DNA from: Dehalococcoidales bacterium
GTDB taxonomy: Bacteria; Chloroflexota; Dehalococcoidia; Dehalococcoidales; E44-bin46
Assembly: GCA_036481135.1 (NCBI GenBank)
Contig: JAZGHN010000037.1
Location: forward strand, 1 to 39,862
Length of the DNA: 39,862 bases
Reading direction: 5' to 3'
Positions within the stretch are counted from its first letter, which is position 1, and each line of letters opens with the position of its first letter. The notes below the pieces were generated by a model that made no database searches, had not been told where the DNA came from, and was given only the letters and a program-made list of their open reading frames with translations. The position numbers and the translations under genes were made by a program. Of this stretch, positions 13,250 through 39,270 are shown piece by piece.

Positions 13250-13273
13250 CAACTTCATTCTTCTCCTAGGCAA

Positions 13274-13302: not shown

Positions 13303-13354
13303 GTTTATGATGCAAATCTTGGTATCATCACTCAATTCTGAGCCTTTCCTCCTC

Positions 13355-13483: not shown

Positions 13484-13498
13484 TAGTCACCTCAGTGA

Positions 13499-13720
13499 TT
13501 ATAAGCTGAGCCTGAGCGTAAACACTGCGATTACCAGGAATACACTGACCAAGACGATGGTAAGCTGGAACATGATCTTTTCCACGCCCCGTCTAGTCCG
13601 ATAGACGGTGCCAGGCTGACCGAAGATACCTCCCAGCCCCCCGCCACGAACCTGAAACAGAATAATAATTATCAAAGCTATAGCCACCACAATCTGGGCT
13701 ATATTGAGATAAGTTTGCAT
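13499..13720 (-). CDS. secG: Preprotein translocase subunit SecG
   Basis: 73 aa with two TM segments flanking the Gly-rich GGGLGGIFG loop. Confidence 0.8.
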   Translation of the reverse strand: MQTYLNIAQIVVAIALIIIILFQVRGGGLGGIFGQPGTVYRTRRGVEKIMFQLTIVLVSVFLVIAVFTLRLSL

Positions 13721-13721
13721 G

Positions 13722-20728: not shown

Positions 20729-20729
20729 G

Positions 20730-21992
20730 ATGAAGAGGCGAGTAGTAGTTACCGGTGTGGGGGTCATTTCCCCCAATGGGGTTGGCAAAGAGGCACTCTG
20801 GGAAGGGATGGCTTCAGGCAAGTCGGGAGTAAGACGTGTCACCGATTTTGATGTATCTCAGTTCCATTCCCAGATAGCAGCCCAAGTAACTGATTTCGAC
20901 CCATTTGCCTTTGGTCTCACCCAAGAGGATGTGGAGAGAATGGACCGCTATGTACAGTTTGGCGTAGCAGCAACACAAACCGCTTTAGATGATGCTAAAC
21001 TCCTTCTAAATGGAGCCAATAGAGGCAGAATGGGCGTTTGCCTGGCCAATGCCATCTGCGGCACGAGATATATGGAAGAGGAATTCCTACGGGTAACCAA
21101 TGGAGGGAGCGACCCTATCGACCCCAGAAAGGCAAGACCCTACCTTTATGACGCCTCGATGTTTAACACCCCCTCCAGTGAGATAGCTGCTCGCCATAGA
21201 CTAAGAGGCATTTGCACCACCGTTTCCACCGGTTGTACCGCCGGTACCGATGCCGTGGGCTTTGCCTATGAAGCTGTCCAGATGGGAGAAGCGGATGTCA
21301 TGATTACCGGTGCTGCTGAGGCACCTCTTTGCCCTATCACCTTTGCCGCCTTTGACGTCATTAATGTTCTCTCTACCAGAAACGATGAGCCAGAGAAGGC
21401 ATCAAGGCCCTTTGACAAGGAAAGGGACGGATTTGTCCTTGCTGAAGGTTGCGGCATTTTGGTCCTGGAGGAATTGGGGCATGCTTTGAGCCGAGGCGCC
21501 CACATCTATTGTGAAATCACTGGTTTTGGCACCTGTTGTAATGCCTACCATATGACAGATTTGCCCCCCGATGGCGATAGCATGGCTGCCTGTATCAAGC
21601 TCGCCTTAAAAGATGCGGAGTTGCCCCACGAAACTATCGACTATATAAATGCTCATGGGAGTTCCACCAAGCAGAATGACATATTTGAGACAAACGGATA
21701 TAAGCAGGTTTTTGGCAAGAGAGCATATGATATTCCAGCAAGTTCCCTGAAATCTATGATTGGTCATCCCCTGGCTGCTGCCAATAGCATAGAGCTGGTA
21801 GCCGATGCCCTTGCTTTCGAACACGATGTTTTACCACCTACCATAAATCAAGAGGTGCCTGACCCTCTATGTGATTTGGACTATATTCCCAATAAGGCTC
21901 GGGAGAAACGAGTTGACCACGTCCTTAAAACCAGCAGCGGTTTCTCTGGTATTCATTCCTCTATGATATTGAGTAGGTGGAATTCAAGGTGA
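20730..21992 (+). CDS. Type II PKS-like ketosynthase alpha (KS-alpha)
   Basis: ATG at 20730 with an AGGAGGG SD. Active-site VSTGCTAGTDAVGFA, plus NAYHMTD and INAHGSSTKQND (Cys-His-His triad), and SLKSMIGHPL. These signatures match aromatic PKS KS-alpha better than FabF. Confidence 0.8.
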   Translation: MKRRVVVTGVGVISPNGVGKEALWEGMASGKSGVRRVTDFDVSQFHSQIAAQVTDFDPFAFGLTQEDVERMDRYVQFGVAATQTALDDAKLLLNGANRGRMGVCLANAICGTRYMEEEFLRVTNGGSDPIDPRKARPYLYDASMFNTPSSEIAARHRLRGICTTVSTGCTAGTDAVGFAYEAVQMGEADVMITGAAEAPLCPITFAAFDVINVLSTRNDEPEKASRPFDKERDGFVLAEGCGILVLEELGHALSRGAHIYCEITGFGTCCNAYHMTDLPPDGDSMAACIKLALKDAELPHETIDYINAHGSSTKQNDIFETNGYKQVFGKRAYDIPASSLKSMIGHPLAAANSIELVADALAFEHDVLPPTINQEVPDPLCDLDYIPNKAREKRVDHVLKTSSGFSGIHSSMILSRWNSR

Positions 21993-23200
21993 AGAAGGTA
22001 GCGCTTACCGGAATAGGCATCGTAGCCCCTCCCGGAATCGGGAAGGAAAGATTCTGGCAAGGCATTAAACAGGGAAAATCCTTCATTTCCCCTATTACCA
22101 GCTTTGACGCCTCGCTCTATCCCTCGCAAGTGGCCGGGCAGGTTGAGGACCTAGATACCAGCCACTTCTCCTTCCGCCTGTTAAAGAAGCTAGATAAATT
22201 CTCGGTGATGGCTTTAGTGGCTACTGAGCATGCCTTAAAAGACGCCCTTATAGATTTAGATAAGGAAGACCCCTATAACATAGGCATCTTTCTGGGAAAT
22301 GCCTTAGGGGGATGGCTCTATGCCGAGACAGAGCTGCGCGACCTTTACGTAGAGGGCAGACAAGGGGTAAGCCCGTATCTGGCTAGCGCCTGGTTTCCCG
22401 CTGCCCCCCAAGGTCAAATCTCTATCTATTATGGCATAAAGGGATACAGCAAGACGATGGTCGCAGACAAGGCGAGCGCTTTAATGGCCATTGGTTATGC
22501 TGCCAAGGTAGTGGGCAACAAAAAAATAGGCATTGCTCTGGCTGGGGGCACCGAGGCACCGGTTACTCCTTATGCCCTGCTTTGCTGTAGCACAGAGGGC
22601 TCACTGTCACAGGGTCCTTACCGACCTTTTGATAAAGAAAGAGACGGGCTTGTTGTTGGTGAAGGGACAGGACTGGTGGTCTTAGAGGAAATGGAATCTG
22701 CCCGGAAAAGGGGGGCAACCATTTACGGGTTGATTACCGGCTATACCACTTGCTGTGATGGTGCTTGCCGTATTGCGCCAGACCCAACTGGCAAGGGACT
22801 GGCTGAGGCGATAAAGACCACCTTAGATATGGCTGGTTATCAGCCCGGCGACATTGATTATATCTGTGCCGATGGGATGGGAACAAAATCGGGAGATGTT
22901 AGCGAGACAAAAGCAATAAAAGAAGTATTTGGCAGTTATGCCCAAAAGATACCGGTTAGCGCCCCAAAGTCCATGTTTGGTCATCTCATGGGGGCATCTA
23001 ATGCCGTTGATGTTATCACTACCCTCCTGGCCATGCAAGAAGGAATTATCCCCCCCACTATAAACTACCAAACCGAAGACCCTGAATGCGATTTAGATTA
23101 TGTGCCTAATAACAGCCGACCCAAAGAGATCAACCGAGCCCTTATTCTCGCCCGCGGTCGCGGAGGAATAAACGCCGTTCTGGCCATAGAAAGGAGCTAA
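21989..23200 (+). CDS. Ketosynthase beta / chain-length-factor-like subunit (catalytic Cys absent)
   Basis: GTG at 21989 overlaps the KS-alpha TGA (GTGA coupling); the alternative GTG at 21977 is the ORF-track start. Thiolase fold, but the active-site position reads MVADKASALMAIGYA and both His motifs are degenerate (CCDGACR, CADGMGTKSGD). Confidence 0.75.
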   Translation: MKKVALTGIGIVAPPGIGKERFWQGIKQGKSFISPITSFDASLYPSQVAGQVEDLDTSHFSFRLLKKLDKFSVMALVATEHALKDALIDLDKEDPYNIGIFLGNALGGWLYAETELRDLYVEGRQGVSPYLASAWFPAAPQGQISIYYGIKGYSKTMVADKASALMAIGYAAKVVGNKKIGIALAGGTEAPVTPYALLCCSTEGSLSQGPYRPFDKERDGLVVGEGTGLVVLEEMESARKRGATIYGLITGYTTCCDGACRIAPDPTGKGLAEAIKTTLDMAGYQPGDIDYICADGMGTKSGDVSETKAIKEVFGSYAQKIPVSAPKSMFGHLMGASNAVDVITTLLAMQEGIIPPTINYQTEDPECDLDYVPNNSRPKEINRALILARGRGGINAVLAIERS

Positions 23201-23202
23201 GA

Positions 23203-23439
23203 TTGGCAGAGGTAGACGAAACGATAAAAGGAATGCTTATGAAGTCCTTTGATATGAAGCCCGAAGAGCTCACCATGGAGGCGAATCTAAAGAAAGACCT
23301 TGAGATGGACTCGCTGGAGATGGTGGAATTGGAGGTGGCTTTAGAGGAGGAGTTCAAGATTGACATTAAGGATGGCGAGATTACCAATAAGAATTGTGTG
23401 GGTGATGTGATCAAAGTTGTACAGGATAAGCTCAAGTAA
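23203..23439 (+). CDS. Acyl carrier protein
   Basis: 78 aa with a DSL phosphopantetheine attachment motif (LEMDSLEMVEL). AGGAG SD, TTG start. Confidence 0.85.
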   Translation: MAEVDETIKGMLMKSFDMKPEELTMEANLKKDLEMDSLEMVELEVALEEEFKIDIKDGEITNKNCVGDVIKVVQDKLK

Positions 23440-24245
23440 TGAGGATTATAGACCTGAGTCTCCCTATTGATGATAGTGTTTCCGAGACTCACCCGGTAGA
23501 AATAGAGAGATGGGAGCACAGGAGTGGTGGAGACCGACTTGGCAAGCTATGGGCTAGGTCTCAGGGGATAAAGGGACGCATGAAACATATCACCGGGAAG
23601 GAGCGGATCACGCGCGATTGCTTTAAGGACGGGCTCTTTTTGTCTCTAGAATGGGTTAGAGCCACGGTGCATAGCGGCACCCATCTTGACGCCCCATATC
23701 ATTACGGGCCGTACTCCGAAGGAAAACCAGCAAAGAAAATAGAGGATATCCCACTGGAGTGGTGCTATGGCGATGGTGTGGTTCTGGATTGCTCTGATAA
23801 AGGCGCGGGAGAGGTTATCACCGAAGCAGACATAAAAAAGGCACTGGGCAAAATAAAGTATAAGATAAAGCCCTTTGATATCGTCCTTATTCACACCGGT
23901 GCCGATAAGCTCTGGGGGACAAAGAAGTATTTTTCTCATTATGTCGCCCTAAGCAGAGATGCGTTAGCCTACATTGTGAACTTCGAGGTAAAGGTTATCG
24001 GGGTTGATATCTTCAGCCTAGACCGTCCCCTTCCGGCTATGGTGAGGGACTTCTTAAAGACCAAGGACAATAGTTATCTCTGGCCTGTCCATTTCTATGG
24101 CAGGGAAAAAGAATATTGTCATATAGAAAGGCTGGCCAATCTGGATAAGATTCCCCAGCCCTACGGCTTTAAGGTGGCTTGCTTCCCCGTAAAGATAAAA
24201 GGGGCTGGTGCCGCCTGGGTAAGGGCGGTGGCTATTATTGAATAA
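23439..24245 (+). CDS. Cyclase-family protein (kynurenine-formamidase/putative cyclase fold)
   Basis: HSGTHLDAPYHY metal-binding motif. 268 aa. TAATG overlap with the ACP stop. Confidence 0.75.
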   Translation: MRIIDLSLPIDDSVSETHPVEIERWEHRSGGDRLGKLWARSQGIKGRMKHITGKERITRDCFKDGLFLSLEWVRATVHSGTHLDAPYHYGPYSEGKPAKKIEDIPLEWCYGDGVVLDCSDKGAGEVITEADIKKALGKIKYKIKPFDIVLIHTGADKLWGTKKYFSHYVALSRDALAYIVNFEVKVIGVDIFSLDRPLPAMVRDFLKTKDNSYLWPVHFYGREKEYCHIERLANLDKIPQPYGFKVACFPVKIKGAGAAWVRAVAIIE

Positions 24246-24258
24246 AAAGGAGTGGAAA

Positions 24259-24702
24259 ATGGGACAGACGGTAAACTCTATCTTGATTAAGGCACCCTAT
24301 GATGCGGTGTTTGACATCTCCAATGACATTGAAAGGTGGACAGAACTATTCGGCGGGGAGTATACGGAGGCGAAGATATTAAAACGGGAGGGGAATAAAC
24401 TTACCTTCAAGCTAACCGACGATGAAGGCAATTCTTGGCAATCCTTCCGTCTCTTATTTAAAGACTACTACTTTGCCTATGCCCAGAAGCTGGAGCCAAC
24501 ATTCCCCTTCGATTATATGAAGATTATCTGGCTTTATACCCCTGTGCCCGAGGGGATACTTATGACCTGGATTCAATTCTTTTCCATGGCGGAGGGGGCA
24601 AAATTCAACGATGAGCAGGTTGAGGGTTTCATCAATAAACATTCCACGGATAACCTGAAGATATTTAAAGAGGTGATAGAGAAAGAGGCGAAAAAGAGGT
24701 GA
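24259..24702 (+). CDS. SRPBCC-superfamily polyketide cyclase/aromatase-like protein
   Basis: ATG at 24259 after an AAGGAG SD (the ORF-track TTG at 24238 is less likely). ~147 aa with N-terminus VNSILIKAPYDAVFDISNDIERW, typical of TcmN/START-like cyclases. Confidence 0.65.
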   Translation: MGQTVNSILIKAPYDAVFDISNDIERWTELFGGEYTEAKILKREGNKLTFKLTDDEGNSWQSFRLLFKDYYFAYAQKLEPTFPFDYMKIIWLYTPVPEGILMTWIQFFSMAEGAKFNDEQVEGFINKHSTDNLKIFKEVIEKEAKKR

Positions 24703-24705
24703 GAG

Positions 24706-25479
24706 ATGAGTGAATTGAGAGGCAAAACCGCCATTGTTACCGGGGCAAGTAGAGGTATCGGGAGGTCGATTGGGGAAGCACTGGCCAAGGAAGGGATGAA
24801 CTTAGCCCTCGCAGCACGAGGTAAAGAGGTGCTGGAGAAGACGGCAAAGGAGCTGTCTGAGCAATATAAGGTGAAGATATTGCCTGTGCCATGCGATGTT
24901 TCCCAACAAAAAGACCTGGAGAATCTGGTAACAGCCGCCATTAAAGAATTCAAGAAGATAGACGCCTTAATCAACAGCGCCGGGGTAAGCAGCCAACACC
25001 CCTTCCAGGACCAACCAGTGGAGGACATCCCCAGGCTTATGTATACCAACTATTTTGGCCCAGTGATGCTTACCCGCTTGATTATCAATCACTTTATCGA
25101 AAATAAAGGCGGAGCCATTATAAATATCACCTCCGGCTCTACCCTGGTAGACCCTCCACCGAGAAACTTCATTGTTTATACCTCTCTTAAACAGGCATTA
25201 AAAGCCTTTGGCAAGGGACTTTTCTGGGAGGTGCGGGATTTTGGCATAAAGGTGACCTCAATCATGCCAGGGGTAACCGATACCGCCCTAACCGGCGGGC
25301 TTAAAGACGTCTCTGTGGACAAGTCTCGTCTCATGCAAACCGGGGTGATAGAGGATGCGGTTAAGTTCGCCCTTACCGTGCCAGCCAACGTCTGCCCCCT
25401 GGAGATTTCAGTTATCAACCAGCGCACCCCCTGGACAAGACCGATAATTCCATATAAACAGGCACATCCGAAAGAATGA
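24706..25479 (+). CDS. Short-chain dehydrogenase/reductase (ketoreductase)
   Basis: TGASRGIG cofactor motif, NSAG, and catalytic Y-x3-K (YTSLKQALK). Confidence 0.85.
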   Translation: MSELRGKTAIVTGASRGIGRSIGEALAKEGMNLALAARGKEVLEKTAKELSEQYKVKILPVPCDVSQQKDLENLVTAAIKEFKKIDALINSAGVSSQHPFQDQPVEDIPRLMYTNYFGPVMLTRLIINHFIENKGGAIINITSGSTLVDPPPRNFIVYTSLKQALKAFGKGLFWEVRDFGIKVTSIMPGVTDTALTGGLKDVSVDKSRLMQTGVIEDAVKFALTVPANVCPLEISVINQRTPWTRPIIPYKQAHPKE

Positions 25480-26384
25480 TGTTTGACGCACATGCTCATT
25501 GGCTACCAAGAGAAATTATTGATAACGCCCACTTTTTCTCCCCTGCCTGGGGTGATATCAAGCGGCAACTGGCACTTATGGATAAATTCCACATTGAGAG
25601 AGCACTCCTCCTCTACCCCACCAGCGATGCCTACCAACAGATGGGCGGCCTGCAGAAAGTAGCCAGGATTTACAACAACAGCATAGCCGAGGTGGTGAAA
25701 CGATATCCGGAGAGATTTATCGGAGCAGCCATCCTGCCCGTAGATGAACCAGAGGCGATGGTCACAGAATTTGACCGTGCCACCGAGGAATTGGGCTTCA
25801 AAGCCATCTCTCTGGCTACAAGCTTTGAGGGCGTCTATCTGGACGATGATAGATTTCATCCGCTCTACGAAAGGGCAGAGGCATCAAATACACCCCTCTT
25901 TGTCCACCCCCAAACCATAAATCCCATAGGTTTTGAACAAGTGAAGGACCCGTTACTTACCCCAGTGATTGAATTTGTCTTTGATACCACCATGTGCATC
26001 GGCAAATTGATGACCGCCGGGACACTGAGAAGATTCCCCAATCTGAAATTTGTCTTTGCCCACTTCGGCGGGGTGATGCCCTTTATCAAGGAGAGATTTG
26101 ATACCGTATATAAGATGCTGAGAGGGAGAAACATAGTGAAAGACCTCTTTGCTCTGCCCAGCGACTATCTGAAGCAGATATATGTGGATACCAGCGGGGC
26201 TACCTCTCCTTCTACCCTGATGAGCACCCTGGAAATGGTGGGGGCGGAACATACTCTATGGGGCAGCGATTACCCCAGCAATCCTGATGTCTCAGCATCA
26301 ATCGCCGCCATAGAGGGGCTGGACATCCCGTCAGAGGATAAGAAAAGGATACTGGGCGCGAATATAGAGCGAGTATTGGGTTAA
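25476..26384 (+). CDS. Amidohydrolase_2 family protein (ACMSD-type metal-dependent decarboxylase/hydrolase)
   Basis: N-terminal DAHAHWLP (HxH) motif, FVHP, AHFGG, and the C-terminal WGSDYP motif typical of this family. ATGA overlap with the SDR stop. Confidence 0.75.
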   Translation: MMFDAHAHWLPREIIDNAHFFSPAWGDIKRQLALMDKFHIERALLLYPTSDAYQQMGGLQKVARIYNNSIAEVVKRYPERFIGAAILPVDEPEAMVTEFDRATEELGFKAISLATSFEGVYLDDDRFHPLYERAEASNTPLFVHPQTINPIGFEQVKDPLLTPVIEFVFDTTMCIGKLMTAGTLRRFPNLKFVFAHFGGVMPFIKERFDTVYKMLRGRNIVKDLFALPSDYLKQIYVDTSGATSPSTLMSTLEMVGAEHTLWGSDYPSNPDVSASIAAIEGLDIPSEDKKRILGANIERVLG

Positions 26385-26444: not shown

Positions 26445-26520
26445 AGGAGTGTAGCTCAGTTGGGAGAGCAACGGTCTCCAAAACCGTAGGTCGGGGGTTC
26501 GAGTCCTCCCACTCCTGCCA
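26445..26520 (+). tRNA. tRNA-Trp(CCA)
   Basis: Acceptor AGGAGTG/CACTCCT, anticodon loop CTCCAAA, T-loop TTCGAGT, encoded CCA. Confidence 0.9.
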
Positions 26521-26525
26521 GACAA

Positions 26526-26613
26526 GCCGGGGTGGCGGAAGCAGGTAGACGCGCTAGCTTGAGGGGTTAGTGCCCGCAAGGGCGTGGGAGTTCAAATCTC
26601 CCCTCCGGCACCA
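26526..26613 (+). tRNA. tRNA-Leu(GAG)
   Basis: Acceptor GCCGGGG/CTCCGGC, anticodon loop TTGAGGG, long variable arm, T-loop TTCAAAT, encoded CCA. Confidence 0.85.
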
Positions 26614-26618
26614 AAAGG

Positions 26619-26693
<75 letters not shown>

Positions 26694-26794: not shown

Positions 26795-26823
26795 TTGACA
26801 CAAAAGAGGGTGTGGGTTATACT
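26795..26823 (+). promoter_or_regulatory. Near-consensus sigma70 promoter, TTGACA-N17-TATACT, upstream of pylSc
   Basis: TTGACA at 26795-26800 and TATACT at 26818-26823. Same hexamers and spacing as the promoter at 16958. Confidence 0.45.
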
Positions 26824-26915: not shown

Positions 26916-27764
26916 TTGTCCGCAATGTCCATCACACTAACAGAAACCCAAAAACAACGTCTGCGAGAATTGGATGCTGATACCCGCTTGGCGGAGAAGG
27001 TATTCAGCGATGTCCAAGAGCGGGACGCAAGCTTCAAGATGATGGAGAAGAGTTTGATTGAGGGGGAAAAACAGCACTTGCGAAACCTCCGCCGCCATCA
27101 TCGCCGCCCCGCAGTTTGTCAAATAGAGAACACCCTGGTAAATAAACTTACCGAAGAAGGTTTTGTCCAGGTTATTACCCCCCTAATCATAACCAAGGCA
27201 TTTTTAGAGAAGATGACTATCACCGCTAGCAATCCCCTGATAAATCAGGTTTTTTGGCTCAGTAAGAATAAGTGTCTGCGACCAATGCTGGCGCCAAATC
27301 TCTATTATCTTCTGAGGCGGCTTGTCCGCTTATGGAAAAAACCCATCCGTATTTTTGAAGTAGGCCCATGCTTTCGCAAAGACACTCAAGGGAGTGAGCA
27401 CCTAAATGAATTTACCATGCTGAACCTTGTTGAGCTGGGCTTACCCCCGGAAAGCAGGCAGGCACGGTTAAAAGAGTTAGCCTCCCTCCTCATGGGAGTT
27501 ATCGGTATAGATAAGTACCAGTTGGTTTCCAAGCCATGCGAAGTCTATGGCGAAACAGTGGACATCGCGACCGATACCGGTATCGAGCTTGGTTCGGCAG
27601 CAATGGGTCCCCATCCCTTGGATGATGCCTGGAGAATAGTTGACCCGTGGGTAGGGTTAGGAATGGGTTTGGAGAGGCTGGTAATGGCGAAACAGGGGTA
27701 TCAAAATATTCAGAGAGCAGGACGCAGCTTGATATACCTTGATGGGGCAAGACTGAACATCTAG
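26916..27764 (+). CDS. pylSc: Pyrrolysyl-tRNA synthetase, catalytic C-terminal polypeptide (PylSc)
   Basis: Very close to the Desulfitobacterium PylSc sequence I recall: GFVQVITP.IITK, QVFWL..NKCLRPMLAPNLY, IRIFEVGPCFRKDTQGSEHLNEFTMLNL (class II motif 2), IVDPWVGLGMGLERL, YLDGARLNI. The start is TTG 26916 or ATG 26925. The stop is TAG. Confidence 0.9.
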   Translation: MSAMSITLTETQKQRLRELDADTRLAEKVFSDVQERDASFKMMEKSLIEGEKQHLRNLRRHHRRPAVCQIENTLVNKLTEEGFVQVITPLIITKAFLEKMTITASNPLINQVFWLSKNKCLRPMLAPNLYYLLRRLVRLWKKPIRIFEVGPCFRKDTQGSEHLNEFTMLNLVELGLPPESRQARLKELASLLMGVIGIDKYQLVSKPCEVYGETVDIATDTGIELGSAAMGPHPLDDAWRIVDPWVGLGMGLERLVMAKQGYQNIQRAGRSLIYLDGARLNI

Positions 27765-27894
27765 CTAATCGGGTACAAGGAGGGGGAACTATATGATGTA
27801 AATGGCACTCTACAAGTTGGCCTGTCCAATTAAAATAGGCGGGGTGTTGGGCTGAAGAGAAACAAAAAATACAGCAAAGGAGGGTTTAACATTA

Positions 27895-28545
27895 ATGGCA
27901 GGACAGAAAGAGATACTAGAAAAGGCAAAGCAATCAATCATTGACTTCGACAAAGGTAAGGCGGAAGCAACTGCCAAGGAGGGTTTGTCCAGCGGGATTG
28001 GCCCAGCTACAATAATAAATGAGGGATTTGTTCCTGGAATAACTCAGGTGGGTAACCTTTTTGACCGGGGGCAAATATTCCTGCCGGAATTGATGCTGGC
28101 GTCTGAAGCAATGAAGACAGGGTCAGCAATATGTATAGCAGCACTCCCTGCATCAGAGGTTCAGGCAACGAAGAAAGTAGTAATCGGGACCGTGGAAGGA
28201 GATGTCCACGACATCGGAAAATCGATTGTTGTCTCCTTCTTATTAGCCAATGGCTTTGAGGTCTATGATATAGGTAGAGATGTGCCTATTGAGAAATTCG
28301 TGGAGAAGACTCGTGAGGTAAATGCGGATGTGGTTGGGGCAAGCGCTTTATTGACCACCACTATGGAGGGGCAGAGGACGGTAATAGAAGAGCTAAAGAA
28401 AGCTGGGTTGCGGGATAAGGTCAAAGTAATCATAGGTGGAGCGCCAGTCAGCCAACCATGGGCCGACCGCATAGGAGCAGATGCCTATGCTGAAAACGCC
28501 GTAGACGGAGTAAACAAGATAAAGAAATTAACCGGCTTGGCATAA
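27895..28545 (+). CDS. Cobalamin-binding corrinoid protein (MtmC/MtbC/MttC-like)
   Basis: 216 aa with an N-terminal helical cap plus a B12-binding Rossmann domain carrying the D-x-H-x2-G motif (GDVHDIGKSIV), SALLTTT, and GGA. Confidence 0.85.
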   Translation: MAGQKEILEKAKQSIIDFDKGKAEATAKEGLSSGIGPATIINEGFVPGITQVGNLFDRGQIFLPELMLASEAMKTGSAICIAALPASEVQATKKVVIGTVEGDVHDIGKSIVVSFLLANGFEVYDIGRDVPIEKFVEKTREVNADVVGASALLTTTMEGQRTVIEELKKAGLRDKVKVIIGGAPVSQPWADRIGADAYAENAVDGVNKIKKLTGLA

Positions 28546-28564
28546 TAGAGTCGATAATAACATC

Positions 28565-29686
28565 GTGATGAGAGATAATACCTGTTTTGGTATAGAGGGA
28601 ATATTAGCCAAAGCACTGTGCGAGGAGTCTCTAACCAAAGGGGAGGTCCTTTCTTTACTCAGCTTAAAGCAAGCTGACGACATTAAGAAGCTCTTTGAGG
28701 TAGCACGGAGACTAAGAGACCGATATTTTGGCAATAGCATTTTTCTTTACGGGTTCCTCTACTTCTCCACCTGGTGCCGTAATAACTGTGCCTTCTGTTA
28801 TTATCGCGCCTCTAATAGATTGTGCCAGCGATATCGGAAAACTGAGCGCCAGGTTATGGAAGCGGCTCTTGAGACGGCAGACTCCGGGGTTCACCTGCTT
28901 GATTTAACTATGGGAGAAGACCCCTTTTATTACCAAGGGAAAGATGGCTTTGAGCCCCTACTACACCTGATAAAAGAGATTAAACGGCAAACATCTTTAC
29001 CGATAATGATTTCCCCCGGAGCTCTCCCCGACGAAGTTTTAGCGAAGCTATTTGAGACAGGGGCGGAGTGGTACGCCTGCTATCAGGAAACCCACAATAA
29101 AAAACTCTACCACCAGCTCCGGTTGAATCAGAGCTACAGTGATAGGCTCAGGAAGAAGTATAAGGCGGCTCAGTTAGGTGTACTCATTGAGGAAGGGATA
29201 TTAGCTGGGGTGGGGGAATCGTTAGAAGATGTAGCCGACTCTATGGAAGAGATGCGGAGGATGGGGGCTCACCAGGTGCGTGTTATGAATTTTATTCCTC
29301 AAAAGGGAACCCCCATGCATGATTTTCCTCCACCCCCTAAAATGCGTGAACTGCTAATTATTGCTGTTTTGCGTCTACTGTTTCCTCGTCGGTTGATACC
29401 TGCTTCTCTTGATGTATATGGTATTGAGGGGCTCAAGGGAAAGCTAGAAGCTGGAGCTAATGTAGTTACTTCCTTAATTCTCCCCCATTCGGATATGGTA
29501 GGTGTAGCCCAAAGTACCCTGGATATCGCCGAGGGTCACCGGACAGTAGAGGGAATAACCCCGATACTCAATGAATTGGGGCTAACCAAGGCCAGACTTG
29601 ATGATTATATCTCGTGGATTGAGAAGAAAAGAAAGAGCTATATAGATGTAGATAGGTATCGGCTTAGAGAAAAGGTATTGTTGTGA
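28565..29686 (+). CDS. pylB: 3-methylornithine synthase (radical SAM)
   Basis: CRNNCAFCYY (CX3CX2C) in FLYFSTWCRNNCAFC, then LDLTMGEDPFYY, LPIMISPG, YQETH, RLIPASLD and GANVVTS. These are collinear with the Methanosarcina PylB I recall. Confidence 0.9.
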   Translation: MMRDNTCFGIEGILAKALCEESLTKGEVLSLLSLKQADDIKKLFEVARRLRDRYFGNSIFLYGFLYFSTWCRNNCAFCYYRASNRLCQRYRKTERQVMEAALETADSGVHLLDLTMGEDPFYYQGKDGFEPLLHLIKEIKRQTSLPIMISPGALPDEVLAKLFETGAEWYACYQETHNKKLYHQLRLNQSYSDRLRKKYKAAQLGVLIEEGILAGVGESLEDVADSMEEMRRMGAHQVRVMNFIPQKGTPMHDFPPPPKMRELLIIAVLRLLFPRRLIPASLDVYGIEGLKGKLEAGANVVTSLILPHSDMVGVAQSTLDIAEGHRTVEGITPILNELGLTKARLDDYISWIEKKRKSYIDVDRYRLREKVLL

Positions 29687-30858
29687 GAGTGGCAATTGTT
29701 GGGGGGAAATTGCAGGGGGTGGAAGCAGCCTTCCTTGCTCATGAAGCAGGGTGGGAAGTAGTTCTTATCGATAAGAAATCGAGTGTGCCGGCATCAGGAT
29801 TATGCCGGTCTTGTTATCAATGCGACGTTGTTAAAGATGTTTCATCCTTGCGTCGAATTATAGAGAAGGTTGATTTGATTATCCCGGCGCTTGAGGATGT
29901 TACCGCCCTTAGAGCTCTACAGAAATGCGCGGCTGATGCCAATGTCCCTTTAGCTTATGGTACCGGAGCCTATTTTATTACCCATTCCAAAAAGCGTTCC
30001 AATCGCCTCTTTGAAAAGTTGGGTGTTCCCCAGCCACAAAGTTGGCCCCAATGCGGGCTGCCACTGATGGCAAAACTATCAACTTCAAGCGGGAGTCAAG
30101 GGGTATCTAAGATATCTACTGAGAAGGAACTTGATGATTTTATCAAGGGTGCGGGTTCAGAGCTGGGGCGCTGGATTTTACAGGAATATGTGGAGGGCCC
30201 CTCCTATTCCATCGAAGTTCTGGGCTCGGAGGGACATTACACAGCTCTCCAGGTCACAGAGCTGGAAATGGATGAGCTCTACGACTGCCATCGGGTTCTT
30301 GCTCCTGCCCAGATTGCGGAGTCACTGGACAGGCAGATTAAAGAAATGGCGCTCATCATTGCTCGGAGTCTCCATTTGAAGGGGATTATGGATGTTGAGG
30401 TCATCCTTGATAAGGATGTTCCCAAGGTGTTAGAGATTGATGCCAGACTTCCCAGCCAGACTCCTACCGCGGTCTATAAGTCCACGGGAATAAACATGCT
30501 GGAGCTATTGCGGGACATATTTGTCACCGGTACCACGCCGGTAATCCCTAGAGCAAAAGCCTCACGGGGGGTTGTTTATGAGCATGTTAGGTTTTCCCCA
30601 AACGGTTTAGAATTTCCGGGGGAACATATTATGGGAGAAGCTGACTCCCTTGAGGTCGTCCCCGGTTTCTTTGGGGCTGATATAGCGCTGACAAACTTCA
30701 ATTTGTCATCTTTTTCCTGGGTGGCAACGCTGATTATTACCGGGGAGAGCCGAGAACGAGCATGGCTTAAACGCGAGCAAGTTATAGAAAATATCAAAGG
30801 TTTACTGAAGGCTTCCAAAACCAGGTTTACTGGCATACCTTCATTGTCCAGAGGATAA
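29683..30858 (+). CDS. pylC: 3-methylornithine--L-lysine ligase (ATP-grasp)
   Basis: MRVAIVGGKLQGVEA N-terminus with ATP-grasp core (QEYVEGPSYSIEV, MDVEVI, VLEIDARLPSQTP). Position between pylB and pylD. GTGA overlap with pylB. Confidence 0.85.
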   Translation: MRVAIVGGKLQGVEAAFLAHEAGWEVVLIDKKSSVPASGLCRSCYQCDVVKDVSSLRRIIEKVDLIIPALEDVTALRALQKCAADANVPLAYGTGAYFITHSKKRSNRLFEKLGVPQPQSWPQCGLPLMAKLSTSSGSQGVSKISTEKELDDFIKGAGSELGRWILQEYVEGPSYSIEVLGSEGHYTALQVTELEMDELYDCHRVLAPAQIAESLDRQIKEMALIIARSLHLKGIMDVEVILDKDVPKVLEIDARLPSQTPTAVYKSTGINMLELLRDIFVTGTTPVIPRAKASRGVVYEHVRFSPNGLEFPGEHIMGEADSLEVVPGFFGADIALTNFNLSSFSWVATLIITGESRERAWLKREQVIENIKGLLKASKTRFTGIPSLSRG

Positions 30859-30860
30859 AT

Positions 30861-31682
30861 ATGGCAAGGTGTCTCACCAAAGAAGACGTGATAGAGGTAG
30901 TGGAGAAACTTCCTGCCTATGATGCTGAATTGGTTCGAAAAACAGGTTTGTCACTCAAAGATATTGCCACTCGCTCTATGGGGGTCAGCGAGGAGAAGGC
31001 CAAGGCTGCCATTGCTTCCCATAAAGTAGCGGTGGTGCCTATAACCGCGGGGGAGGGAGTCGTTGAATACTTTAGCGAAGCGGTTACCGGCATCTTAAAT
31101 TATCTTGGAGCCGATGTTTTTAAGACCAGCAGTACCGATATAGCTGGAGTAGCAGAGGGGGTTGAGAAAGGCGCAGACATTGTTTTCTTTGCTGATGATA
31201 ATCGCTTTATCGCCCTGAACCTTGCCTTGAGGAAGGTTATCGATAATGCTGAGTCCACAGCAAAAGGGTATGCTACCGCACTGGAAGCCATGGCTGGAGG
31301 CTTAACCCAGCGCAAGGTGCTGGTGATTGGGGGAACGGGGCGGGTAGGCTGGAATGCGGTTTTGTCTCTAAAACACAAGGGGGCAAAGGTAGCAGCTATC
31401 GACCTTAACCAAGATAGAATGGAGTCGCTGGGGAAGGAGCATAAAATTATAGTGGAAAGGAACCTGGAGGAGGCGCTCGGCCGATATACACTATTTTTTG
31501 ATGCTTCAACTTCAGCCAATATCATACAGGCAAAACATATTAAGCCAGAAACGCTTATCGCTGCTCCTGGAATGCCGCTGGGGTTAACTGAAGAGGCTCG
31601 CTCTCTGGTTAAAGAGCGCCTGATTCAGGATGTGCTGGAGATTGGTGTGGCCACCATGTTCATTCAGACCAGTTGTATTTAG
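30861..31682 (+). CDS. pylD: Pyrrolysine synthase (3-methylornithyl-N6-lysine dehydrogenase)
   Basis: 273 aa with a Rossmann motif VLVIGGTGRVG. Position after pylC. Ends with the tandem stops TAG-TGA, 27 nt before pylT. Confidence 0.85.
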   Translation: MARCLTKEDVIEVVEKLPAYDAELVRKTGLSLKDIATRSMGVSEEKAKAAIASHKVAVVPITAGEGVVEYFSEAVTGILNYLGADVFKTSSTDIAGVAEGVEKGADIVFFADDNRFIALNLALRKVIDNAESTAKGYATALEAMAGGLTQRKVLVIGGTGRVGWNAVLSLKHKGAKVAAIDLNQDRMESLGKEHKIIVERNLEEALGRYTLFFDASTSANIIQAKHIKPETLIAAPGMPLGLTEEARSLVKERLIQDVLEIGVATMFIQTSCI

Positions 31683-31709
31683 TGAGGGAGTAGCCTAAAA
31701 TATTAGACA

Positions 31710-31781
31710 GGGGGGTTGATCGGAAAGATCACACAGACTCTAAATTTGTGTAGCCGGGTGTAACTCCCGGACTCCCCGCCA
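31710..31781 (+). tRNA. pylT: tRNA-Pyl (CUA anticodon), amber suppressor
   Basis: Hand fold of GGGGGGT-T-GATC-GGAAA-GATC-A-CACAGA-CTCTAAA-TTTGTG-TAG-CCGGG-TGTAACT-CCCGG-ACTCCCC-G-CCA. One nt separates the acceptor and D stems. 5-nt D-loop without GG, 6-bp anticodon stem, 3-nt variable loop, non-TPsiC T-loop, G73 discriminator. Anticodon CTA at 31740-31742. Confidence 0.9.
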
Positions 31782-31811
31782 TAAGTTGATCGAGATAACA
31801 GGGGAAAAGCA

Positions 31812-32165
31812 TTGACAGATAAGACACACAAAAGAATCTACTGGCAACAGGTCCCCCTCTTTCAAATGATAGATAAGATCAAACTGTGGCCTTCTCGAAA
31901 GGGAGTCCTCCACGGGATCAGAACCTTTGAAACCAAGGGGGGGTCTTGTGCTTATCTGGTCACCCACTGTAATGAGCAGATAACGATACGCAATTCTAAG
32001 AACTGTCGTGCCGCCCGCTGGCTTCGCAATAAATGGTCTGTTAAGCCATGTGAGAAGTGTAAAACCCCTGAATGGAAGCTCGAAAAATATTCAGAGACAG
32101 TTTTCAAGCGTGGCCGGATTCCTGCTTATTTACTGGAGCAGACGCAACAAGCGGAGTCTAAGTAA
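31812..32165 (+). CDS. pylSn: Pyrrolysyl-tRNA synthetase N-terminal tRNA-binding polypeptide (PylSn)
   Basis: KLWPSRKGVLHGIR and IRNSKNCRAARWLRNKWSVKPCEKCK align by eye with the Methanosarcina PylRS N-domain ([39 protein letters not shown]). TTG start at 31812; an alternative ATG at 31866 is possible. Confidence 0.8.
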   Translation: MTDKTHKRIYWQQVPLFQMIDKIKLWPSRKGVLHGIRTFETKGGSCAYLVTHCNEQITIRNSKNCRAARWLRNKWSVKPCEKCKTPEWKLEKYSETVFKRGRIPAYLLEQTQQAESK

Positions 32166-32270: not shown

Positions 32271-33068
32271 GTGATAGTTCTTGGTGAGTTGATAAATTCA
32301 ACGCGAAAATCGGTGCAGAAGGCTCTTGCGGAGAAGGACGAGGCTACTATTCGCCGTCTGGCTCGAGAGCAGCTGGAGGCTGGAGCTGATATTATTGATG
32401 TGAATACTGCTACCAGCATGGAGAAGGAAATTGACGACATGAAGTGGGTGATTGGGCTTGTTTATGATGAGGTAGGAGAAGACGTACGTATAGCCATCGA
32501 TACCCCTAATCCCAAGGCTATGGCGGCAGGACTGAAGCTTTGCAAAGCCCGCCCTCTTCTTAATTCTGTTAACAACGACCCGAGACAGAAAGAGCTGATT
32601 GATATTGCCAAAGGCTCCGAAGGTGATATTGTGGGCCTCCCCATGGGAGGGAAAACGGCAATGCCTAAGACAGTAGAGGAGCGCCTTGAGGAGACCGACA
32701 TACTCGTCTGCACTCTTGAGCAGGCTGGTATAGATTTAAATCGGCTGTATGTAGACACTATAGTGATGACTATCGGCAGTAATCAGGAACAGGGTCGTGC
32801 CGTTATCAATGCTACACGCGAAGTCAAGAGACGCTTCGGCGACAAGGGAGTGAAGACATCGGTAGGGTTATCAAATGTCTCCTTTGGATTACCTAAGCGC
32901 ACCCTGCTTAATCAGGCGTTTTTGGCTATGCTTCTTGAGGCGGGACTGGATATGGCGGTCATCGACCCCAGGGATGAGGGGATGATGGACATACTACGAG
33001 CCTCAGAAGCTATAATAGGGACTGACCAGAACTGTCTTAAATACATGCGGCATGTGAGGAGCAAGTAA
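32271..33068 (+). CDS. Pterin-binding methyltransferase (methylcorrinoid:tetrahydrofolate methyltransferase, MtgA/MtrH-like)
   Basis: 265 aa with GTG start after an AAGGAGGG SD. TIM-barrel pterin-binding features (GADIIDVN, AIDTPNP, LLNSV, SVGLSNVSFGLP). Confidence 0.7.
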   Translation: MIVLGELINSTRKSVQKALAEKDEATIRRLAREQLEAGADIIDVNTATSMEKEIDDMKWVIGLVYDEVGEDVRIAIDTPNPKAMAAGLKLCKARPLLNSVNNDPRQKELIDIAKGSEGDIVGLPMGGKTAMPKTVEERLEETDILVCTLEQAGIDLNRLYVDTIVMTIGSNQEQGRAVINATREVKRRFGDKGVKTSVGLSNVSFGLPKRTLLNQAFLAMLLEAGLDMAVIDPRDEGMMDILRASEAIIGTDQNCLKYMRHVRSK

Positions 33069-33093: not shown

Positions 33094-33843
33094 ATGTTTC
33101 AGATAGTACCTGAGACTGAGTTCTCAAACTTTAAGGTGCCTCCACATGAGGTGTGGCGTTATTTAGGCTATCCTGACTCGTCCCGAGCACGCCCGGAGGT
33201 TCACGAAATCTTTAAGCGGGTGATGGAGATAGGGCCGTCCCTTCTGGCACCAGCAGCGTGTTACGATATTTTCCCCATAAAGAACATAACCTCTTCCTCT
33301 GTGGAGGTGGATGGCGTTTCCTTTGACAGCGGGGACCTGGCACTGCGCCAGCGTGAAGCAAAAGAGCTTGCCCTTTTTATAGTAACCGCCGGACGGCGCA
33401 TTGGAGAGGAGGCAGAAAAGCTTATCCAGAGCGGGGATGCTGTTCTGGGATATATACTGGATATGTTTGCCTCGGCGGCTGTGGATACCCTAGCCTACAA
33501 GGTGAGGGAGATAATCCAGGACGACATCAAATCCAAGGGCTATCAGGCAATAAATCACGGCATCTGTATCGGCAAGAAGTGCCCAGCATATAGAGATTGC
33601 GCCGGGGTAGTAGTCTACTGGTGGAGTCCCGGTTATGGAGATTGGACCGCGCTGGAGAATAAGAAGATATTCTCCCTTGTCGATGCAAACCAAATTGGAG
33701 TCCGGGTAAAAGACAGCGGCATGATGACCCCGCGGAAGTCCTATGCCTGTGCCATGCCCATTGGCCCTGAGGGAGAGAAGCCGACAGAGAAGTGCATTGA
33801 GGGGGAAAGGGAGTGGATACAACGAGGCATTAAGTCTAGATAA
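33094..33843 (+). CDS. MetH activation-domain-like protein (vitamin B12-dependent methionine synthase activation region family)
   Basis: 249 aa. By-eye resemblance to standalone Met_synt_B12-like proteins found in corrinoid methyltransferase operons. Cys-rich segment CIGKKCPAYRDC. The assignment rests on family recall and context. Confidence 0.5.
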   Translation: MFQIVPETEFSNFKVPPHEVWRYLGYPDSSRARPEVHEIFKRVMEIGPSLLAPAACYDIFPIKNITSSSVEVDGVSFDSGDLALRQREAKELALFIVTAGRRIGEEAEKLIQSGDAVLGYILDMFASAAVDTLAYKVREIIQDDIKSKGYQAINHGICIGKKCPAYRDCAGVVVYWWSPGYGDWTALENKKIFSLVDANQIGVRVKDSGMMTPRKSYACAMPIGPEGEKPTEKCIEGEREWIQRGIKSR

Positions 33844-33907: not shown

Positions 33908-35863
33908 ATGTCAAAAGGTACAAATAAGCAATCGAAGGTCATCTTCCAGCCATCGGGGCGGAGGGGCTATGTAAACGACGGAGAGACCATCAAGCAGGCA
34001 GCACAGGAGCTGGGTGTAGGTATAGAAGGCATATGTGGCGAAAAGGCTACCTGTGGCAAGTGCAAGGTCAGGATAGAGGAAGGGGTTTTCGCCAAATATA
34101 AAGTTGAGTCCCGGATGGATAACCTCTCTCCGCCGAATAAGGCAGAGAAGAAACAACTCACCCCCCAGCAGCAGCGCGATGGCTACCGGCTTGCCTGTCA
34201 GGCTCGCATCCATGGTGATGTTGCGGTCTTCGTTCCTGAGGAGAGTCGCCTAGGTAAACAGATCATACGCAAAACGGCTCGAGAGATAGCCATCGAGTTA
34301 AAGCCATCTGTACGGAAATACTATGTAGAAATAACCCCGCCCACTCTGGATGACAACCTAGGCTGCTGGGAGCGTCTGCAGGCTGAACTCGACAAAAGCT
34401 TTGGCCTGAATGGTCTTGCTATCGACTATCAGGTGCTCCGTGTCTTACAGAGCGTGATGCGCCGGGATAATTGGAAGGTAACCGTATCGGTATGGATGAA
34501 CGGAGAGGTGGTCAATGTGGAGCCAGGCCCTGTAGAAAAGAGTTACGGTCTGGCGGTAGATATAGGCACCACCACAGTAGCTGCTTATCTCTGTGATCTG
34601 GGCACTGGCGAGATCGTAGCCACCGATTCCATGATGAATCCACAGGTGGCTTACGGCGAAGATGTGATGTCCCGCATCAGCTACTCTATGACCCGTAAAG
34701 ACGGCCTAGCGAGCATGAACCGGGCTATCATAAAGAGCCTCAACCAACTGGCGGGGCGAGCCGCTGCTGCCGCGGGTATCAAGCGGAGTGCCATCATTGA
34801 CATGGCCGTCGTCGGCAATACCTGCATGCACCACATATTCCTCAACGTTGACCCACAGTATATCGGCAGGTCACCGTTTGCTCCAGCCCTGCACCACTCT
34901 GCCGATATTAAAGCACGTGACCTGGGGCTTAAGATATCACCGGGGGCTTACGTTCACGTTCTCCCTATTGAGGCTGGTTTCGTGGGCGCTGACAATGTAG
35001 GGGTACTCATCGCTGAGGAACCATACAATCAGGACGATATGCTGCTGGTAATCGACATCGGCACCAATGGCGAGCTAGTGTTGGGCAACCGAGATAAGCT
35101 CATGTCCTCTTCCTGCGCCACCGGTCCCGCCTTTGAGGGGGCTGAGATAAAATTTGGAATGCGTGCTGCCCCGGGGTCTATCGAAAAGATAAAGATAGAC
35201 CCGGATACCAAGGAGGTGCGCTTCAAGGTTATCGGCAAGGCAGATTGGAATACGGATTTGGAAGATATGGGGGCCAAAGGTATTTGTGGGTCGGGGATAA
35301 TTGATGCCGTAGCCCAATTGTTCGTGGCGGGTATTATAGACCGAACCGGCCGATTTAACACTGATTTGAGCACGCCCCGCTTGCGAGTCAGTGAGAACAG
35401 GCCAGAGTTCGTCATCGCCTGGGCAAAGGAGACCTCCGTTAATCAGGATATCGTGCTCTCCCAGCAGGATGTAAGAAATATACAGCTGGCCAAAGGGGCT
35501 ATGTATACCGGGGCTAAGATAATGATGCGCCATTTGGGTGTGAAGAAATTGGATAAGATTATCCTGGCTGGAGCCTTCGGAAGCTACATTGATAAGGAAT
35601 CAGCGGCGGTCATAGGGCTTTTCCCAGACTGCGCTCGAGAGAACATCTACTCTGTAGGTAATGCCGCTGGCGATGGGGCACGGATAGCTCTCCTCAATGT
35701 GAACAAGAGGGCAGAGGCTGACGAAATGGCGAGGAAGGTGGAATACGTAGAATTAACCGTGGAGCCAGATTTCCAGAAGGTTTTCAGCCAAGCCATGTGG
35801 TTCCCCCACATGAAGGATAGTTTCCCCCACCTAAAGCACCTACTGCCTCAGAGCAAAGACTGA
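33908..35863 (+). CDS. RACE-type reductive activator of corrinoid enzymes (N-terminal 2Fe-2S ferredoxin plus ASKHA ATPase domain)
   Basis: 651 aa. Plant-type ferredoxin Cys pattern (CGEKATCGKCKV...ACQARI). ASKHA phosphate motifs (GLAVDIGTTTV, VIDIGTNGE, GPAFEGA). Confidence 0.8.
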   Translation: MSKGTNKQSKVIFQPSGRRGYVNDGETIKQAAQELGVGIEGICGEKATCGKCKVRIEEGVFAKYKVESRMDNLSPPNKAEKKQLTPQQQRDGYRLACQARIHGDVAVFVPEESRLGKQIIRKTAREIAIELKPSVRKYYVEITPPTLDDNLGCWERLQAELDKSFGLNGLAIDYQVLRVLQSVMRRDNWKVTVSVWMNGEVVNVEPGPVEKSYGLAVDIGTTTVAAYLCDLGTGEIVATDSMMNPQVAYGEDVMSRISYSMTRKDGLASMNRAIIKSLNQLAGRAAAAAGIKRSAIIDMAVVGNTCMHHIFLNVDPQYIGRSPFAPALHHSADIKARDLGLKISPGAYVHVLPIEAGFVGADNVGVLIAEEPYNQDDMLLVIDIGTNGELVLGNRDKLMSSSCATGPAFEGAEIKFGMRAAPGSIEKIKIDPDTKEVRFKVIGKADWNTDLEDMGAKGICGSGIIDAVAQLFVAGIIDRTGRFNTDLSTPRLRVSENRPEFVIAWAKETSVNQDIVLSQQDVRNIQLAKGAMYTGAKIMMRHLGVKKLDKIILAGAFGSYIDKESAAVIGLFPDCARENIYSVGNAAGDGARIALLNVNKRAEADEMARKVEYVELTVEPDFQKVFSQAMWFPHMKDSFPHLKHLLPQSKD

Positions 35864-36050: not shown

Positions 36051-36136
36051 GCCGAAGTGGCGGAATGGCAGACGCGCTACGTTCAGGGCGTAGTGTCCGT
36101 AAGGGCGTGTGAGTTCAAATCTCACCTTCGGCACCA
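36051..36136 (+). tRNA. tRNA-Leu(CAG)
   Basis: Acceptor GCCGAAG/CTTCGGC, anticodon loop TTCAGGG, long variable arm, T-loop TTCAAAT, encoded CCA. Confidence 0.85.
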
Positions 36137-36144
36137 TTATTAAG

Positions 36145-36221
36145 GCGCTTGTAGCTCAGTTGGACAGAGCGCAGCCCTGCGAAGGCTGAGGCCGTGGGTT
36201 CAAGCCCCACCAAGCGCACCA
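36145..36221 (+). tRNA. tRNA-Arg(GCG)
   Basis: Acceptor GCGCTTG/CAAGCGC, anticodon stem CAGCC/GGCTG, loop CTGCGAA (G34 C35 G36), T-loop TTCAAGC, encoded CCA. Confidence 0.8.
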
Positions 36222-36225
36222 CTGC

Positions 36226-36302
36226 GGGCGGTTAGCTCAGATGGTTAGAGCACCTGCTTTACACGCAGGGGGTCAGAGGTTCAAGTCCTCTACCGCCCAC
36301 CA
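36226..36302 (+). tRNA. tRNA-Val(TAC)
   Basis: Acceptor GGGCGGT/ACCGCCC, anticodon loop TTTACAC, T-loop TTCAAGT, encoded CCA. Confidence 0.9.
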
Positions 36303-39215: not shown

Positions 39216-39270
39216 TGGTGGAGCTGGGGGGATTCGAACCCCCTACCTTTTGACTGCCAGTCTCGACTGA
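39216..39270 (-). pseudogene. ssrA: Truncated 3' end of tmRNA (ssrA): T-arm plus acceptor 3' strand plus CCA only
   Basis: The minus strand reads ...GTCGAGACTGGCAGTCAAAAGGTA-GGGGG-TTCGAAT-CCCCC-CAGCTCC-A-CCA. CAGCTCCACCA is the conserved tmRNA 3' terminus, which pairs with 5' GGGGCTG including G3:U70. No CAGCCCC (the 5' end) occurs anywhere downstream in the window. Confidence 0.65.

Follow-up and report, generated by a model that had tools for sequence, protein, structure and literature searches.

An earlier study of sediment and subsurface metagenomes attributed genes of a "Chloroflexi-type" split pyrrolysyl-tRNA synthetase (PylRS), pylSc and pylSn, to Chloroflexi/Dehalococcoidia, and reported them in passing and in the context of co-occurrence with SepRS (Mukai et al., 2017; mBio 8:e00561-17, PMC5424206). 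A later PylRS survey names four bacterial phyla and omits the Chloroflexota (Guo et al., 2022; PMC9630628), suggesting that pyrrolysine (Pyl) in this phylum is under-publicised, though not new. A literature search for pyrrolysine together with Dehalococcoidia or Chloroflexota returned nothing substantive beyond the 2017 study. Protein records at NCBI already carry the name "pyrrolysine--tRNA(Pyl) ligase large subunit" for a Chloroflexota bacterium and a Dehalococcoidales bacterium. To our knowledge, the Pyl-encoding Chloroflexota include no cultured member and none in which proteomics has demonstrated Pyl use. Here we describe a Pyl gene cluster on a 39,862-nucleotide (nt) stretch of DNA from a Dehalococcoidales bacterium (contig JAZGHN010000037.1 of assembly GCA_036481135.1), the whole of which is called the window below. 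Judging from its sequence, the cluster is a further member of the reported Chloroflexi-type system, built from textbook Pyl components, complete and very probably functional, and is no taxonomic expansion of Pyl. As in the genes reported in 2017 the PylRS is split, and the window PylSc falls into a clade whose members are all Dehalococcoidales where named to order, whereas neither SepRS nor SepCysS is encoded in the window. The gene order, the embedded mtbC-like gene and the separation of the machinery from its client genes are described here from the related loci L007-L013, L093 and L095 (numbers with L are our handles for public loci and contigs).

The reading that we favour, at a probability of about 0.85, is that the window carries a native, functional operon with which an uncultured Dehalococcoidales bacterium from a marine cold seep makes and decodes Pyl, and that this operon is interleaved with accessory genes for corrinoid-dependent methylamine:tetrahydrofolate methyl transfer. 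A preliminary description of this DNA had located six Pyl components (pylSc, pylB, pylC, pylD, pylT and pylSn) on one strand at 26916-32165, and they were found exactly there, on the plus strand (Table 1). Component identity was judged by the bit scores of NCBIfam hidden Markov models against their curated cut-offs, and PylSc, PylB, PylC, PylD and PylSn, which had previously been recognised by eye, all score far above them; with E-values between 1e-35 and 1e-146, the matches of these five proteins are not due to chance. The radical-SAM CX3CX2C box ascribed to PylB is present in the translation as CRNNCAFC, and pylB and pylC overlap by 4 nt. What the description missed is the corrinoid protein gene at 27895-28545, as well as the continuation of the co-directional, tightly spaced array beyond pylSn to 35863 with three more genes; arrays of tRNA genes flank this ~9-kb unit on either side. 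The corrinoid protein passes the cut-off of a cognate corrinoid protein model and scores 238.9 with the MtbC model, below its cut-off of 350. The Pfam domain Pterin_bind is annotated for the methyl-corrinoid:tetrahydrofolate methyltransferase (MT2) on near-identical public contigs, as are Fer2, RACo_linker, RACo_middle and RACo_C_ter for the activase, while the 249-amino acid (aa) protein encoded between the two is probably an accessory protein of corrinoid reactivation, to judge from its likeness to the MetH reactivation domain. The corrinoid protein, the MT2, the MetH-activation-like protein and the activase alongside the pyl genes indicate that the cassette lies within the accessory half of a pathway that moves methyl groups from methylamines to tetrahydrofolate.

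Two of the start codons bear on how the cluster appears in public annotation. The open reading frame (ORF) of pylSc opens with TTG at 26916, while public gene callers start three codons further on, at ATG 26925, which yields a product of 279 aa and is the likely start. The pylSn gene starts with TTG, 3' of an AGGGG ribosome-binding site. Public annotation of the near-identical contigs (L001-L006) mostly lacks a call for it, so that automated surveys would score the organism as one without PylSn. A consensus match upstream of pylSc might serve as a promoter.

Table 1. Features of the Pyl cluster and its surroundings, numbered from the first nucleotide of the window. Scores are in bits, followed by the cut-off of the model where given.
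Feature	Position	Strand	Evidence or remark
pylSc, PylRS catalytic subunit	26916-27764	+	TIGR02367 (PylS_Cterm) 341.6 vs 178.15; stop TAG
MtbC-like corrinoid (B12-binding) protein	27895-28545	+	TIGR02370 "methyltransferase cognate corrinoid protein" 241 vs 215
pylB, radical-SAM methylornithine synthase	28565-29686	+	TIGR03910 487.7 vs 348
pylC, ATP-grasp 3-methylornithine--L-lysine ligase	29683-30858	+	TIGR03909 425.1 vs 248
pylD, 3-methylornithyl-N6-lysine dehydrogenase	30861-31682	+	TIGR03911 259.1 vs 150
pylT, tRNAPyl, anticodon CUA	31710-31781	+	ARAGORN tRNA-Pyl
pylSn, tRNA-binding N-terminal PylRS subunit	31812-32165	+	TIGR03912 (PylS_Nterm) 119.7 vs 51.15
Pterin-binding methyl-corrinoid:tetrahydrofolate methyltransferase (MT2)	32271-33068	+	NF005719 253.7, just below cut-off of 259
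249-aa protein, weak likeness to MetH reactivation domain	33094-33843	+	Pfam Met_synt_B12 25.7 vs 25
RACo/RamA-like reductive activase (2Fe-2S ferredoxin domain and ASKHA ATPase)	33908-35863	+	AcsV 500.6, RamA 127.6, both below cut-off
tRNA-Trp(CCA), tRNA-Leu(GAG), tRNA-Gly(GCC); upstream boundary	26445-26693	+	ARAGORN, Rfam
tRNA-Leu(CAG), tRNA-Arg(GCG), tRNA-Val(UAC); downstream boundary	36051-36302	+	ARAGORN, Rfam
Promoter-like site TTGACA-17-TATACT, 11/12	26795-26823	+	~95 nt 5' of pylSc; consensus scan only
Two FabF-like ketosynthases	20721-21992, 21977-23200	+	Polyketide synthase-like set
Small acyl carrier protein	~23239-23439	+	Polyketide synthase-like set

The hallmark features of the PylRS pocket, of PylSn and of tRNAPyl are all conserved. 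PylSc aligns over residues 7-282 with the sequences of the Desulfitobacterium hafniense PylSc crystal structures (3DSQ, 2ZNI; E ~1e-94) and has the motif-2 arginine (R154). Loss of the Pyl pocket had been named beforehand as an argument against the assignment; the pocket is kept, as Y130, L133, N170, V172, Y211 and W245 align with Y126, M129, N166, V168, Y206 and W239 of Methanomethylophilus alvus PylRS (6JP2). From established knowledge, and not from an alignment, we take these positions to be equivalent to Y306, L309, N346, C348, Y384 and W417 of Methanosarcina mazei PylRS. PylSn matches the N-terminal domain of the latter enzyme (5UD5; E 6e-10), with the aligned histidine and three cysteines conserved. 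In the minimum-free-energy fold, pylT has an acceptor stem of 7 bp, a single linker base to the D stem, a D stem of 4 bp with a D loop of 5 nt that lacks GG, an extended anticodon stem and a very short variable region. Furthermore, the T loop has no T-psi-C, the discriminator base is G and the CCA end is encoded. With the general Rfam tRNA model, pylT is missed even when the threshold is relaxed to E <= 1. The gene is identical in the window and in L007, the locus of a Dehalococcoidales metagenome-assembled genome (MAG) of GTDB, and among homologues at seven related loci compensatory changes in the T stem and the anticodon stem preserve the pylT stems.

The host lineage was placed by homology search with one marker, translation initiation factor IF-2 (9465-11297, minus strand); NusA, GatB and PurA were identified as well. 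The named IF-2 matches are a Dehalococcoidia bacterium (80% identity) and two Dehalococcoidales bacteria (75% and 73%), with no other phylum among the named ones within the top 120, in agreement with the Dehalococcoidia-like backbone proposed earlier. The G+C content is uniform over the window (0.46-0.54), contigs matching the region at 98.9-99.9% identity were recovered from at least six independent assemblies, and the PylD protein recurs unchanged on 14 metagenome contigs in public databases. The South China Sea Site-F cold-seep dataset (PMC9357000) is the source of one near-identical contig. L007 is collinear with the window for 13.4 kb at 86% nucleotide identity. The recurrence in independent assemblies, the flat G+C content and the collinear L007 argue that the contig is not a chimera, and support a Dehalococcoidia backbone with a cluster that is native to that lineage.

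A profile scan of the GTDB species representatives returned at least 578 PylSc-encoding species, in groups that include Aminicenantes, Thermoleophilia, Spirochaetota, Aerophobetes, Gemmatimonadota and Thermodesulfobacteriota, which makes the confinement of Pyl to Firmicutes, Deltaproteobacteria and methanogens, as assumed in the preliminary description, outdated. Among the GTDB matches listed, the nine closest PylSc proteins (88-66% identity) belong to seven Dehalococcoidales MAGs and two MAGs labelled "bacterium", and the identity does not exceed 63% outside the clade, Firmicutes and Deltaproteobacteria included. A neighbour-joining tree of 81 PylSc sequences (200 bootstraps) unites the window with L007-L015 in 199 of 200 replicates, and all members of this clade that are named to order are Dehalococcoidales. 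The contig thus lies within a clade already known to encode Pyl, and the taxonomic expansion that the same description had suggested does not hold in view of the 2017 report, the names at NCBI and the at least nine GTDB species-level genomes in the PylSc clade. Three loci from other Chloroflexota (L022, L031 and L040; PylSc identity 57-58%) fall outside it, indicating that the phylum holds at least two PylSc lineages. Their layout is different as well, in that a RACo-like gene abuts or overlaps pylSc, and L040 has mtbB and a TAG-containing mttB downstream.

The order pylSc, mtbC, pylB, pylC, pylD, pylT, pylSn recurs in L007, L009, L010, L012, L013 and L016, that is, in five of the nine genomes of the clade and in one locus beyond it, and the corrinoid gene lies directly 3' of pylSc in L007, L009-L013, L015 and L016. 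On the upstream side, a short-chain dehydrogenase/reductase (SDR) gene, an amidohydrolase gene, tRNA-Trp and tRNA-Leu are common to the window, L007, L012 and L013; tRNA-Gly comes next in L007 and L013 and is uncalled in L012. Since PylSc of L012 and L013 is only ~72% identical to that of the window, the maintenance of this flank argues for a long residence at the chromosomal site. Downstream, the MT2 gene directly follows pylSn in the window, L012 and L013, and homologues of the MetH-activation-like protein adjoin the pyl clusters of L008, L011 and L013. Relative to L007, every pyl gene has a ratio of nonsynonymous to synonymous substitution rates (dN/dS) of 0.09-0.25, while the SDR and amidohydrolase genes of the flank have 0.06-0.12; the pyl genes are under purifying selection.

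Two of the related loci deviate in other respects. In L013, PylC and PylD are 56% and 52% identical to their window counterparts, versus 70-78% for PylSc, PylB, MT2 and RACo of the same locus, which suggests accelerated evolution or replacement of its pylCD (12741-14723). L016, from a MAG labelled Deltaproteobacteria (DeMMO6_17), has the window-type order followed by a TAG-containing mtbB after pylSn, with a PylSc identity of 63%; either this locus was acquired horizontally or its contig is wrongly binned or labelled.

The client genes of the Pyl machinery are found next to the cluster in some relatives and at a separate locus in others. An mtbB gene with one in-frame TAG lies beside the cluster in L008, L009, L010, L016 and L087, between pylSn and MT2 in L009 and L087 and directly after pylSn in L010 and L016; L008 holds both mtbB and mtmB, and the MtbB proteins of L009 and L010 score 564-678 bits with Pfam Dimeth_Pyl. 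By contrast, the MAG of L012 (CAYLMC01) has its client genes on a different contig, L093 (CAYLMC010000017.1). These are mtbB (TAG at codon 356), mtmB and mttB, each with a single in-frame TAG that was verified by read-through. Likewise, the MAG of L013 (CAZVIZ01) has mtbB (TAG at codon 356, verified by read-through) and mttB, the latter called as two adjacent fragments, on contig L095 (CAZVIZ010000017.1). We take codon 356 to be the Pyl position of Methanosarcina barkeri MtbB. Downstream of the methyltransferase genes, L093 and the metagenome contigs L097 and L099 encode a corrinoid protein and an ABC-transporter binding protein, and the context upstream of the client locus is conserved, with Metallophos, ABM, adenine deaminase and phosphoribosyltransferase (PRTase) genes throughout and SurE on all contigs but L095. 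The second locus also occurs in L096, which stems from a different sample of the cold-seep project; this project is also the source of a contig with more than 99% identity to the window. A search for the client locus through MtbB homologues in the window's own assemblies returned no record provably from this genome. Most likely, the lineage keeps machinery and clients at two loci, and the genome of the window would do the same.

In the proposed pathway, PylB, PylC and PylD would make Pyl from two lysines, and the split synthetase, with PylSc providing catalysis and PylSn tRNA binding, would charge tRNAPyl(CUA). The charged tRNA would read the single in-frame UAG in mtbB, mtmB and mttB at the second locus, beyond the window. 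The resulting methylamine methyltransferases would transfer methyl groups to the cluster's own MtbC-like corrinoid protein in its Co(I) state, from which the pterin-binding MT2 would hand the methyl group to tetrahydrofolate, while oxidised corrinoid would be re-reduced by the RACo/RamA-like activase, probably with the help of the MetH-activation-like protein.

UAG also serves as a stop codon in the window. TAG ends seven of the 35 genes, namely purA, nusA, gatB, truB, a CDP-alcohol phosphatidyltransferase gene (2669-3277, minus strand), pylSc and pylD, indicating that UAG is not globally reassigned and is an ordinary stop. In four of these seven genes a back-up stop follows within 1-5 codons, as in pylD, which ends with TAG-TGA. 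The next in-frame stop of pylSc lies 23 codons past its TAG, and gatB (13722-15215, minus strand) and the CDP-alcohol phosphatidyltransferase gene lack a further in-frame stop over the next 30 codons, such that Pyl read-through would add long tails to the three products. Retention of UAG as an ordinary stop is usual in Pyl-encoding bacteria, and by analogy with what is established for Acetohalobium and Desulfitobacterium, Pyl insertion is probably facultative or regulated here. In a further member of the PylSc clade, represented by L087-L089 (e.g. L087 2584-5472), the pyl cluster lies directly downstream of prmC and of prfA, which encodes the UAG-reading release factor RF1, so that in these loci the release factor competing with tRNAPyl adjoins the Pyl machinery.

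Several observations weigh against a functional operon with clients elsewhere in the genome. A scan for TAG-interrupted ORFs, relaxed below 120 codons per side because MtbB has ~112 codons after Pyl, found no long ORF of this kind in the window and no TAG-interrupted methyltransferase gene either there or in the ~1.8 kb that L001 adds to it, nor did tblastn with MtbB, MtmB and MttB give any match on these two sequences. The slot that mtbB occupies between pylSn and MT2 in L009 and L087 is a 105-nt spacer in the window. The link between the pyl contigs and the client contigs of the sister MAGs depends on metagenomic binning, and Pyl use by the window population itself is argued from sequence. 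In L012, pylB (64 + 274 aa) and pylC (116 + 319 aa) are split in a frameshift-like manner (4075-6360), which could be decay or an assembly error at low coverage. Finally, with TAG as the stop of purA, nusA, gatB, truB, pylSc and pylD, the costs of read-through must be managed somehow.

These points would suit a relic, in which mtbB has left the cluster and the Pyl machinery is clientless, decaying and unused: the window is without a client gene, its ancestral-looking mtbB slot is empty, and erosion and rearrangement are patchy in the clade, with the split genes of L012, the L011 locus lacking pylD and the L008 locus lacking pylD, pylT and pylSn. We nevertheless regard a relic as improbable, though it fares best among the alternatives. 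All six components are intact in the window, L007 and L013, their low dN/dS speaks against disuse, and pylT is unchanged between the window and L007, with stems kept by compensatory changes in distant relatives. Moreover, sister MAGs of the same architecture bear TAG-containing mtbB and mttB, and in one case also mtmB, elsewhere in the genome; the MAG of L012 is the one with all three, despite its split pylB and pylC.

A slightly smaller chance is given to a non-canonical use, in which Pyl would be inserted into proteins other than methylamine methyltransferases, or pyrrolysine or desmethylpyrrolysine would be made as a free metabolite. Purifying selection on a cassette that has no adjacent client would fit this, as would a TAG in a neighbouring gene: the L007 amidohydrolase (6737-7642, orthologue of window 25476-26384) has an in-frame TAG (X in GCXQLDH) where the window has GAG for glutamate (GFEQVKD). 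This TAG could be a sequencing error, a pseudogene mutation or a read-through site, and as a lone case it fits the first two equally well. The cluster itself sits within a corrinoid methyl-transfer module, and all informative relatives have canonical clients with TAG at the canonical position. Its strongest form, in which the population keeps a selected, complete Pyl machinery in a genome truly without mtbB, mtmB and mttB and uses Pyl for unrecognised clients or as a free metabolite, is held to be just as unlikely. In a milder version, these bacteria may be a major non-methanogenic sink of methylamines at cold seeps, and the separate loci may reflect a distinct regulation of UAG read-through.

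The least probable alternative, a recent horizontal gain from Firmicutes or Deltaproteobacteria or an assembly chimera on a Dehalococcoidia backbone, could appeal to the known horizontal mobility of Pyl clusters (Mukai et al., 2017), to the flanking tRNA arrays as typical integration sites and to the identical gene order of L016, but is rejected on the uniform G+C content, the same junctions in at least six independent assemblies and the flank and cluster synteny kept in L012 and L013, with the 199/200 support for a PylSc clade whose order-named members are all Dehalococcoidales and the distance to Firmicutes and Deltaproteobacteria PylSc among the matches listed also standing against it.

If the favoured reading, a native Pyl operon with a separate client locus, is correct, the residual interest of the window is ecological and evolutionary, and concerns the use of methylamines by abundant sediment Dehalococcoidales and the split into a machinery locus and a client locus. 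As Dehalococcoidales are abundant in marine sediments, Pyl-dependent methylamine use would make them rivals of methylotrophic methanogens for the same substrate. Concrete targets for metaproteomics and metatranscriptomics are provided by the machinery locus and the separate mtbB-mtmB-mttB locus.

Beyond the cluster, a gene set resembling a type II polyketide synthase lies just upstream (20721-26384, plus strand); besides the ketosynthases and the acyl carrier protein in Table 1, it comprises a PF04199 cyclase, an SRPBCC polyketide-cyclase-like protein, an SDR ketoreductase and an Amidohydro_2 protein. At 37412-38890 (plus strand), a GAF domain is fused to hypoxanthine phosphoribosyltransferase (HGPRTase, residues 305-467), an unusual regulatory fusion. 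Among the neighbouring genes named in the preliminary description, the split mannosylglycerate genes were recovered as MPGS/MPGP and the inositol-lipid trio as INO1, GT4 and a CDP-alcohol transferase. For its "ssrA scar", there is a sub-threshold tmRNA-like match at 39216-39427 (minus strand; 24.6 bits, where the gathering score is 47; E 3e-6), in which a model of 374 positions is squeezed into 212 nt and which ARAGORN does not call; this match may be the feature meant, or a divergent or partial tmRNA near the end of the window.

Among better known systems, the window resembles in its machinery that of Desulfitobacterium hafniense (PDB 2ZNI, 2ZNJ, 3DSQ), with which it shares the split synthetase, the gene set pylSc, pylB, pylC, pylD and pylSn, and UAG as an ordinary stop. 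By contrast, D. hafniense belongs to the Bacillota, and the window has the corrinoid gene between pylSc and pylB and pylT between pylD and pylSn, whereas we take pylT of D. hafniense to lie upstream of pylSc. The methyl-transfer part resembles the dimethylamine methyltransferase system MtbB/MtbC and RamA of M. barkeri in its TIGR02370-family corrinoid protein and iron-sulfur reductive activase. However, M. barkeri is a methanogen with coenzyme M as the methyl acceptor and a fused PylS, while the window belongs to a non-methanogen with a split PylRS and, via the MT2, tetrahydrofolate as the predicted acceptor. The proposed physiology is similar to that of marine Deltaproteobacteria and Acetohalobium (Kivenson et al., 2021, PMC8318568; Prat et al., 2012), which are likewise anaerobic non-methanogens of marine or saline sediment in which Pyl-dependent methylamine methyltransferases feed C1 metabolism and Pyl decoding is facultative. 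These organisms belong to other phyla, and their mttB usually adjoins the pyl genes (e.g. L018, L028, L048 and L052), whereas the lineage of the window most likely has a separate client locus.

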